Assembly (NCBI GenBank): GCA_963798485.1
Contig: CAWCTR010000007.1
Span: 480,001 to 544,000, forward strand
Direction of reading: 5' to 3'
Source of the DNA: an uncultured delta proteobacterium
GTDB lineage: Bacteria > Desulfobacterota > Desulfomonilia > UBA1062
Length of the DNA: 64,000 nucleotides
In this document: positions 14,222-14,442 of the stretch, one piece after another
Layout of the letters: the number at the start of each line of letters is the position of its first letter
Numbering within the stretch: position 1 is the stretch's first letter
The notes under the pieces: generated by a model
What the model saw: the letters and a program-made list of their open reading frames with translations, nothing else
The model's database searches: none
What the model was told of the DNA's origin: nothing
Made by a program: the position numbers and the translations under genes

Positions 14222-14247
14222 TTTTTGTGATGTTTTGTTTTGAATAT

Positions 14248-14291
14248 AAAAAACCCATTCACGGCCGTGCTCCTTGCCGGGAATGGGTTTT
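14248..14291 (-). terminator. Intrinsic terminator (attenuator) in the metY leader
   Basis: AAAACCCATTC-C-CGGC...GCCG-T-GAATGGGTTTTTT stem with a U-tract, between the leader ORF and the metY RBS. Confidence 0.85.
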
Positions 14292-14319
14292 ATTTGCTGC
14301 GCGTCTGCAGGACTCTCCC

Positions 14320-14421
14320 CTACATGGGCACCCCCCATTCCCTTAAGCGGCACATACACATGCAGCAGCACATGTTCGCGTCTGCAGATGCAGTATGATG
14401 AGTAGGTCTTGCCAAAAGCAT
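14320..14421 (-). CDS. Cys/Met-rich leader peptide MLLARPTHHTASADANMCCCMCMCRLREWGVPM
   Basis: 33-codon ORF with a GAGG RBS and 8 consecutive Met/Cys codons, followed by a terminator and antiterminator. Confidence 0.8.
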   Translation of the reverse strand: MLLARPTHHTASADANMCCCMCMCRLREWGVPM

Positions 14422-14442
14422 GTATCGCCTCGTTGATTTTAA

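Follow-up and report, generated by a model that had tools for sequence, protein, structure and literature searches.

A candidate leader-peptide attenuator with cysteine and methionine codons upstream of metY in the Desulfomonilia

The classical attenuators are the trpL, hisL, thrL and ilv leaders of Proteobacteria, and leaders with mixed regulatory codons are known for thr and ilv. Genes for methionine (met) and cysteine (cys) metabolism are textbook targets of S-adenosylmethionine (SAM) riboswitches, T-boxes and protein regulators. Here we describe a leader that is probably a ribosome-mediated attenuator reading both Cys and Met codons, located before the remains of a metY gene in an uncultured delta proteobacterium (Desulfobacterota, Desulfomonilia, UBA1062). 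It lies on the minus strand of the window, by which we mean the whole 64,000-nt stretch that was analysed (assembly GCA_963798485.1, contig CAWCTR010000007.1, positions 480,001 to 544,000 of the forward strand); positions given below are those of the window.

Among described systems, SAM riboswitches and T-boxes are presented as the usual RNA controls of met and cys genes in the article text of Leyn et al. (2014, PMC4239095), who compared methionine regulation across Proteobacteria on a large scale; the terms "leader peptide" and "attenuat" do not occur in it. Published cysteine attenuation, going by the article texts, is confined to a few settings. In Rhodobacterales, the uORFC-8-2 motif before cysS consists of a Cys-codon open reading frame (ORF) followed by an intrinsic terminator, and its published description reads it as attenuation sensing Cys-tRNA (Brewer et al., 2021, PMC8632094). 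In mycobacteria, polycysteine leaderless short ORFs of a "Cys ribulon" were shown to work translationally, according to the preprint text (Canestrari et al., 2020, bioRxiv 10.1101/834739). Earlier, candidate Cys leader peptides were described, in the article text of Seliverstov et al. (2005, PMC1262725), for cys operons of Mycobacterium and Propionibacterium acnes and for cbs of Bifidobacterium longum. One further article, PMC6892785, names metY just as a regulated gene. The leader described here shares Cys codons with the cysteine leaders, and it adds Met codons and a metY context.

The leader open reading frame and its codon run

The centre of the locus is a run of eight consecutive Met and Cys codons within a short ORF. 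Among the 8,605,748 codon positions in all six frames of this 4.30 Mb genome, a single eight-codon segment is made up entirely of ATG, TGC and TGT, against 0.0005 expected, and the three segments with at least seven such codons all lie at the leader locus, against 0.074 expected genome-wide. The run as a chance occurrence is excluded. Twelve other Cys-rich segments of the genome (CxCCxCCC and similar) were set aside: eight belong to longer frames, open for 164-437 codons and in some cases bearing ferredoxin-like Cys motifs, and the remaining four to short frames (17-55 codons) without a start codon. The parts of the leader are as follows, in the order of transcription, with conservation given for the ten aligned variants introduced below.

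14489-14494, minus strand: -35 hexamer TTGACA of the putative leader promoter, invariant in 10 of 10 aligned variants, its role assigned from the consensus
14467-14472, minus strand: -10-like hexamer TATCTA, with T, A, T, C and the final A kept in every variant
14441-14461, minus strand: operator-like 21-mer between the -10 hexamer and the Shine-Dalgarno site, conserved in all variants
14428-14431, minus strand: Shine-Dalgarno site GAGG, six bases ahead of the leader ORF's ATG (14421)
14320-14421, minus strand: leader ORF of 33 codons plus TAG (14322-14320), by translation of the window; frame open in all 10 variants
14350-14373, minus strand: regulatory run ATG TGC TGC TGC ATG TGT ATG TGC (Met-Cys-Cys-Cys-Met-Cys-Met-Cys), by direct reading
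14334-14342, minus strand: region 2, a G-rich segment (GGGAATGGG) that would supply the antiterminator's 5' strand and is exactly complementary to CCCATTCCC at 14287-14279
14306-14324, minus strand: small hairpin holding the stop codon (TGTAGGG, 5-nt loop, TCCTGCA), from RNAalifold, with 90% of cells paired in 10 sequences
14248-14291, minus strand: intrinsic terminator with A-tract, 12-position stem, 9-nt loop and T6, -21.9 kcal/mol

These parts bear out much of an earlier sequence-only reading of this DNA. It had called a GAGG site with a 33-residue ORF at 14421-14320, eight consecutive Met/Cys codons at 14373-14350, an intrinsic terminator at 14291-14248 before the metY ribosome-binding site, and complementarity of GGGAATGGG, seven nucleotides past the last Cys codon, to CCCATTCCC. 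Each is present on the minus strand at those coordinates; the codon run is unique in the genome and the complementarity is exact.

We think it likely that the whole forms a leader-peptide transcription attenuator. A sigma-70-type promoter with the operator-like motif would drive a leader of ~250 nt, with transcription starting, as judged from the sequence, ~7 nt downstream of the -10 hexamer and a 5' untranslated region of an inferred 35-39 nt. Ribosomes would translate the ORF of 33-40 codons and, where Cys-tRNA or Met-tRNA is scarce, would stall in the Cys/Met run. The stall would leave region 2 (7-11 nt downstream of the run) free to pair with the terminator 5' arm, and with this antiterminator formed, RNA polymerase would continue into the sulfur amino-acid genes. 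With both charged tRNAs plentiful, the ribosome would reach the stop codon, 12-20 nt past region 2, and by covering or unwinding region 2 would let the terminator fold and end transcription. The basis for this reading is the set of sequence parts, their conservation, the frame-preserving evolution of the ORF, covariation in the terminator and complementarity in two registers; from these we infer translation, stalling, a kinetic competition and a response to Cys and Met.

A DNA search of 61 relatives found the leader whole in one genome (G002, 87% identity) and partly in another (G018). Covariance models built from three and then five leader copies placed it in 5 of 52 genomes of the family (G000, G002, G018, G073 and G074) and in 5 of 122 genomes of the class; weaker matches (G065, contig C135 of G074, G064 and G016) turned out to be coding sequence or ordinary terminators. 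A metagenome scan for the pattern of region 2, stop codon and terminator arm returned 15 stretches, 14 of them with the leader. The habitats of these contigs are freshwater sediment, soil, peat and sludge. Even with these metagenome relatives the leader family is small. Genomes and metagenome together gave ten distinct variants, which we aligned from the -35 hexamer to the T-tract. In the sister family, no Cys/Met short ORF was found before metY in the three loci that were parsed (of six fetched, from five genomes).

We also scanned contigs for codons of the pattern Cys-Cys-Cys-x-Cys-Met-Cys-Arg, which yielded at least 119 stretches; 103 among the matches listed had a local frame open for fewer than 90 codons. 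Nine among the matches listed were opened, and only one (L018) was a true relative. The others were chance matches or reading-frame shadows, and the scan is uninformative on distribution. A leader peptide identical to that of G002 is present on a public contig from the Desulfomonilia, which are a class of the Thermodesulfobacteriota. One chance match (L110) lies in a molybdopterin-oxidoreductase-like gene whose 5' end is duplicated in tandem; the codon run falls in the upstream copy, and the same hairpin precedes each copy. Two Planotetraspora records (L063 and L121) contain long TGC/TGT runs (9-13 Cys codons) within a CTG/TGC repeat region.

The ten variants keep the layout expected of a translated leader. 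In each of the five genome copies a GAGG or GGAG-like site precedes the ATG by 5-8 nt, and the metagenome variants have the same layout. The -35 and -10 hexamers are spaced by 16 nt in the window and by 17 nt in the other nine variants. The ORF measures 33-40 codons and is open throughout, with the frame kept in nine of ten; in the remaining variant (L165), a +1 insertion in a G-run shifts the stop 9 nt downstream and rewrites the tail, leaving the RNA pairing intact. Every variant carries a Cys/Met cluster, with 2-5 Cys and 1-5 internal Met codons, and the runs read MCCCMCMC, MCCCMCIC, MCMMCICMC, CCCKCMC, CCRYMCMC, MCMGMC and CMCMC. TGC and TGT are exchanged at aligned Cys positions. The terminal Cys-Met-Cys triplet is kept in eight of ten rows; in G074 its first Cys is replaced by GGG (Gly), and in L165 its Met by ATA (Ile). 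Five gap patterns fall within the ORF, of 18, 3, 9, 3 and 1 nt, and four of them are multiples of three, against 2 of 13 outside it. From the run through region 2 to the stop codon there is no indel in nine of ten rows, and the N-terminal part is variable in length.

A conserved open frame might also mean that the short ORF is an ordinary first gene of the operon, its product a functional Cys-rich micro-protein (for instance metal-, sulfide- or redox-active), with the hairpin serving as a leaky terminator or stabiliser. The frame, open in all ten variants, and a Cys-Met-Cys-Arg core present in seven of them are what such a protein would leave. However, the peptide is poorly conserved outside the run and its changes show no third-position bias, the Cys count varies from 2 to 5, and the tail differs between the two groups of variants and was rewritten in L165 by the +1 insertion while the RNA pairing stayed. 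Pfam, at E<=1, gave nothing in 5 of 5 leader peptides scanned, and a strong terminator (-19 to -33 kcal/mol) stands between the ORF and metY. We consider a micro-protein quite unlikely.

Another possibility is that the nascent peptide itself is the sensor, its Cys-Met-Cys-Arg core and tail arresting the ribosome on a free sulfur metabolite (Met, Cys or SAM), as in TnaC, rather than through tRNA charging. An Arg follows the run in nine of ten variants, which would suit an arrest motif, but L164 has Ser-Ser where the others have Arg, and the tails differ between groups and in L165. In addition, the Arg and the next codons coincide in part with sequence under constraint as RNA, and Cys and Met differ among variants in number and order, a pattern that codon counting predicts and a peptide motif does not. 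This makes an arrest peptide very unlikely; if true, the leader would sense a metabolite by way of its peptide, with a terminator as the output, as a TnaC counterpart in bacterial sulfur metabolism.

RNA pairing in the leader

In the window, region 2 (GGGAATGGG) starts seven bases past the last Cys codon and pairs with the terminator 5' arm in the minimum-energy fold; the duplex has -20.5 kcal/mol, equalled by 13 of 1000 shuffles. The terminator stem is formed by CCCATTCCCGGC with GCCGTGAATGGG and has one C.U mismatch. A simple terminator scan did not pick up the hairpin at 14291-14248 because its loop limit was 8 and the loop here has 9 nt.

Both helices are kept among the ten variants. In the terminator, 95.2% of cells are paired over 17 pairs, three of which change on both sides (compensatory); taken jointly with the stop-codon hairpin, 93.6% of cells are paired, against 31-59% with the partners slid. 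The comparison of relatives for Cys/Met-run ORFs and covarying helices that the sequence-only reading had proposed ends with the run kept in ten variants and three compensatory pairs in the terminator. In the variants folded, terminators have -18.8 to -33.0 kcal/mol and a T5-T7 tract. Every variant keeps complementarity between region 2 and the terminator 5' arm, through two different sequence solutions: the genus-1 type uses a 9-bp register (43 of 45 cells paired) and the genus-5 type a bulged register of 8+4 bp, with 2 nt in the bulge, in which 58 of 60 cells pair. The duplexes of region 2 with the arm have -16.7 to -23.2 kcal/mol, and at most 5% of composition-preserving shuffles do as well in seven of nine variants.

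Since stalling in polycysteine short ORFs is published as acting on translation (by the preprint text, 10.1101/834739), the leader might work in the same mycobacteria-like way, a stalled ribosome opening a structure that hides the metY ribosome-binding site. Here, however, all variants have a canonical hairpin and T5-T7 tract 45-60 nt upstream of the metY start, and the metY ribosome-binding site is outside the conserved helices. We regard translational control of this kind as highly improbable.

We folded nine variants from the inferred start site, with the ribosome modelled as a 30-nt mask. When the transcript is cut before the terminator 3' arm, region 2 pairs with the 5' arm in eight of nine variants, whether the leader is free of ribosomes or a ribosome is stalled on early Cys/Met codons. 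A ribosome at the stop codon of the cut transcript abolishes this pairing in five of eight variants, reduces it in two and leaves it unaffected in L165. Folding with and without a ribosome mask, as the sequence-only reading had suggested, gives the expected pairing in most cut transcripts, and a switch at full length in only two of nine variants.

Several observations weigh against attenuation by Cys and Met codons. In the complete leader at equilibrium, the terminator forms whatever the ribosome position in seven of nine variants, G000 and L164 being the only two that switch; with -17 to -23 kcal/mol against -19 to -33 kcal/mol for the terminator, the antiterminator is the weaker helix. The decision between the two must therefore be kinetic. 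In the E. coli trp leader, the terminator is likewise the more stable helix. For the truncated G002 leader ten states were modelled, and the minimum-energy fold pairs region 2 with the arm in just one of them. The stop codon of L165 is displaced downstream by 9 nt, so that a ribosome there fails to mask region 2. No conserved upstream 1:2 helix (anti-antiterminator or pause helix) recurred in the folds, in which no dedicated search for one was run, and for this reason an untranslated leader would read through. Within the ORF's N-terminal part, substitutions show no third-position bias (G018 and G074, for example, differ at 8 first, 9 second and 6 third codon positions), and the ten variants are close kin in two clusters, so that counts over them overstate independence. 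Finally, genome G032 has the metY clade that elsewhere accompanies the leader, as cysK-metY without a leader, and the genes controlled by the leader are broken in the genome of the window. As for the attenuator architecture claimed from sequence alone, comparative evidence supports the ORF, the codons, the antiterminator and the terminator.

Genes behind the leader and a second control layer

In nine of ten variants metY directly follows the leader. In relatives with intact genes, it is followed by cysK in G018, G074 and the L167/L168 type; by DUF2325, cysK and a serine acetyltransferase-like (cysE-like) gene in G073; by DUF2325 and DUF3034 in G002; and by an NMT1/SsuA-type (sulfonate-type) ABC transporter in L165. 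In the tenth variant (L164), the leader precedes a 77-residue ORF of no known family, a tRNA-Cys(GCA) gene (1365-1439, minus strand), metW and a metX-like hydrolase gene. With the tRNA-Cys gene placed between the leader and metW-metX, the tRNA that would be sensed by the leader may be under the leader's own control. These genes, for homocysteine/methionine and cysteine supply, would all fit a response to sulfur amino-acid shortage. The metY associated with the leader forms a distinct clade, at least 83% identical to the copy of G002 and present in only 6 of 52 genomes of the family, and the leader appears to travel as a cassette with this extra metY paralog.

In the window, full-length sulfur genes are found near the leader, namely a MetY paralog (18462-19742, 64% identical), cysK (15854-16831) and a gene for cystathionine gamma-synthase (14705-15847). 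A regulator of the Rrf2 family is encoded at 17053-17493 (plus strand); its best specific model is CymR, with 129.8 bits, below the cut-off of 195. With a weight matrix made from 12 sites of the operator-like 21-mer, the four best matches in the genome are at 14631, 16906, 17008 and 14441, of which 14441 and 14631 belonged to the training set, and they precede the genes for cystathionine gamma-synthase, CysK and Rrf2, and the leader. Three matches outside the window were examined, and none is beside a recognisable sulfur gene. The four matches around the Rrf2 gene suggest a local, autoregulated sulfur regulon, and an Rrf2 (CymR-like) regulator binding the leader promoter is probably a second control layer.

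Control of the locus might then be due solely to a protein, such as an Rrf2-type repressor at this motif, or to a small-molecule-binding RNA such as an undescribed riboswitch, the ORF being incidental. The conservation of the motif in all variants, its recurrence before the neighbouring cystathionine gamma-synthase, cysK and Rrf2 genes and its presence in G032, which keeps the motif without the leader, are all in keeping with this. But frame-preserving indels (4 of 5 inside the ORF, 2 of 13 outside) are unexpected for an incidental ORF, as are a Cys/Met run that is unique in the genome and synonymous TGC/TGT variation, and no Rfam family matches the leader. In a cmscan search of positions 11000-18000 against Rfam (E<=10), none of seven weak matches fell in the leader (14245-14494) and none was to a bacterial leader or riboswitch family. 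As operator and attenuator can coexist as two layers, this explanation rivals just the attenuator part, and in that form we find it unlikely.

In this genome, the operon behind the leader has decayed.

14211-14224, minus strand: former metY ribosome-binding site (AAAGGAG) and deletion junction, from comparison with the same-genus G002
13348-14208, minus strand: 5'-truncated remnant of metY (O-acetylhomoserine sulfhydrylase), from tblastn and Pfam
12692-13351, minus strand: cysK remnant with an internal deletion and a premature stop, from the PALP profile and alignment to the CysK of G018
11654-12640, minus strand: bioB, complete, from profile search

The ORF first read as metY (13348-14262) matches Pfam PF01053 at profile positions 130-379 of 381. 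Relative to G002, ~433 bp are gone directly after the metY ribosome-binding site, which removes the start codon and ~145 codons; residues 150-437 of the G002 MetY align to 14208-13348 with 87% identity (tblastn). Similarly, the ORF first read as cysK (12758-13351) covers PALP profile positions 1-154 of 295 only, and residues 1-180 and then 283-306 of the G018 CysK align to the region, with a TAG at the junction (tblastn). The metY junction is bridged, with no mismatches, by independently assembled contigs of two runs of one study, X3 (14102-14294) and X4 (14126-14276), so that this deletion is not an artefact of the present assembly. The cysK deletion junction is spanned by none of the contigs of runs X1-X4, which cover the region in pieces.

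The bioB gene begins ~50-120 nt after the cysK remnant, depending on where the remnant is taken to end, and simple scans detected no promoter-like site and no minus-strand terminator-like site between the two. Read-through from the leader could now reach bioB. Among contigs that reach past metY or metW-metX (G002, G018, G073, G074, L164, L165, L167 and L168), bioB is absent from the listed ORFs; it is outside the conserved operon and stands behind the leader only in this genome. Of the metY-cysK-bioB operon proposed by the sequence-only reading, bioB is therefore complete, metY and cysK are deletion remnants, and bioB is no part of the conserved arrangement. The switch is intact in the window, yet it is most likely a relic, or at most governs read-through towards bioB. 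A switch that outlives its genes would be a small natural example of slower decay in regulatory DNA than in the coding DNA that follows it.

The surroundings of this operon have been rearranged. At 10198-11555 the window contains a fragment of an IS5-type transposase (DUF772), and short blocks match scattered places on the G002 contig at 86-98% identity. Elsewhere, a contig of the G002 type (L162) carries behind metY a 65-codon remnant (2224-2421, minus strand) that resembles the start of the SsuA-like binding protein complete in L165, so gene loss behind the leader is not limited to the genome of the window. On contig C21 of G000 (191115-192232, minus strand), a further gene of the Cys/Met pyridoxal-phosphate (PLP) enzyme family is matched in two pieces (profile positions 1-112 and 147-381) and may be split or frameshifted.

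Comparison with known systems

Compared by their descriptions, one of the closest published systems is uORFC-8-2. By the article text (PMC8632094), it shares with the present leader a Cys-codon ORF (mostly UGC, with some UGU) followed by an intrinsic terminator. In that description its Cys codons are a tandem pair within the first stem, and the gene under its control is that of the Cys-tRNA synthetase of Alphaproteobacteria, whereas here 2-5 Cys codons are interleaved with 1-5 Met codons and the genes downstream are metY (9 of 10 variants) or the 77-residue ORF, tRNA-Cys, metW and metX (1 of 10).

The mycobacterial polycysteine ORFs, as presented in the preprint text (10.1101/834739), are likewise Cys-run ORFs upstream of a cysteine-metabolism operon, in which stalling within the run switches the genes on. 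They have a leaderless start and unmask the following gene's ribosome-binding site, unlike the present leader with its Shine-Dalgarno site, inferred 5' untranslated region of 35-39 nt, intrinsic terminator and Met codons. The leaders of Seliverstov et al. (article text of PMC1262725) are, like ours, predictions from comparative genomics with Cys-codon runs near the stop, before cysteine genes; no conserved terminator hairpin is described for those leaders and they were proposed to depend on Rho, whereas terminator and antiterminator are conserved here. SAM riboswitches and T-boxes, from what the article text of PMC4239095 gives, also act in a 5' leader with a terminator before metY, metX or cysK. 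They sense the ligand or the tRNA directly via RNA, with no translated ORF, and no such family matches here.

Full-text searches of the literature, which covered the articles PMC8632094 and PMC4239095 without their supplementary tables, returned no Met codons described as regulatory codons and no leader peptide or attenuator before metY. The sequence-only reading knew of no described example in this lineage; Cys-codon attenuators have been published, and the kind is not new. What appears to be new, as far as the literature was searched, is the specificity for Cys together with Met codons and the metY context. If the leaders of relatives work as proposed, the ribosome itself would report on both sulfur amino acids in these anaerobes, through a switch layered under an Rrf2-type repressor and carried as a cassette with an extra copy of metY.

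Set beside the classical attenuators, the leader has the same plan: a short ORF, preceded by a Shine-Dalgarno site, in which codons for the products of the pathway cluster, an antiterminator overlapping the 5' arm of the terminator, and a stop codon placed so that a finishing ribosome would mask the antiterminator. It departs from them in its Cys and Met codons, in having no conserved 1:2 helix that we could see and no match to an Rfam leader, and in its occurrence in a lineage of the Desulfomonilia.

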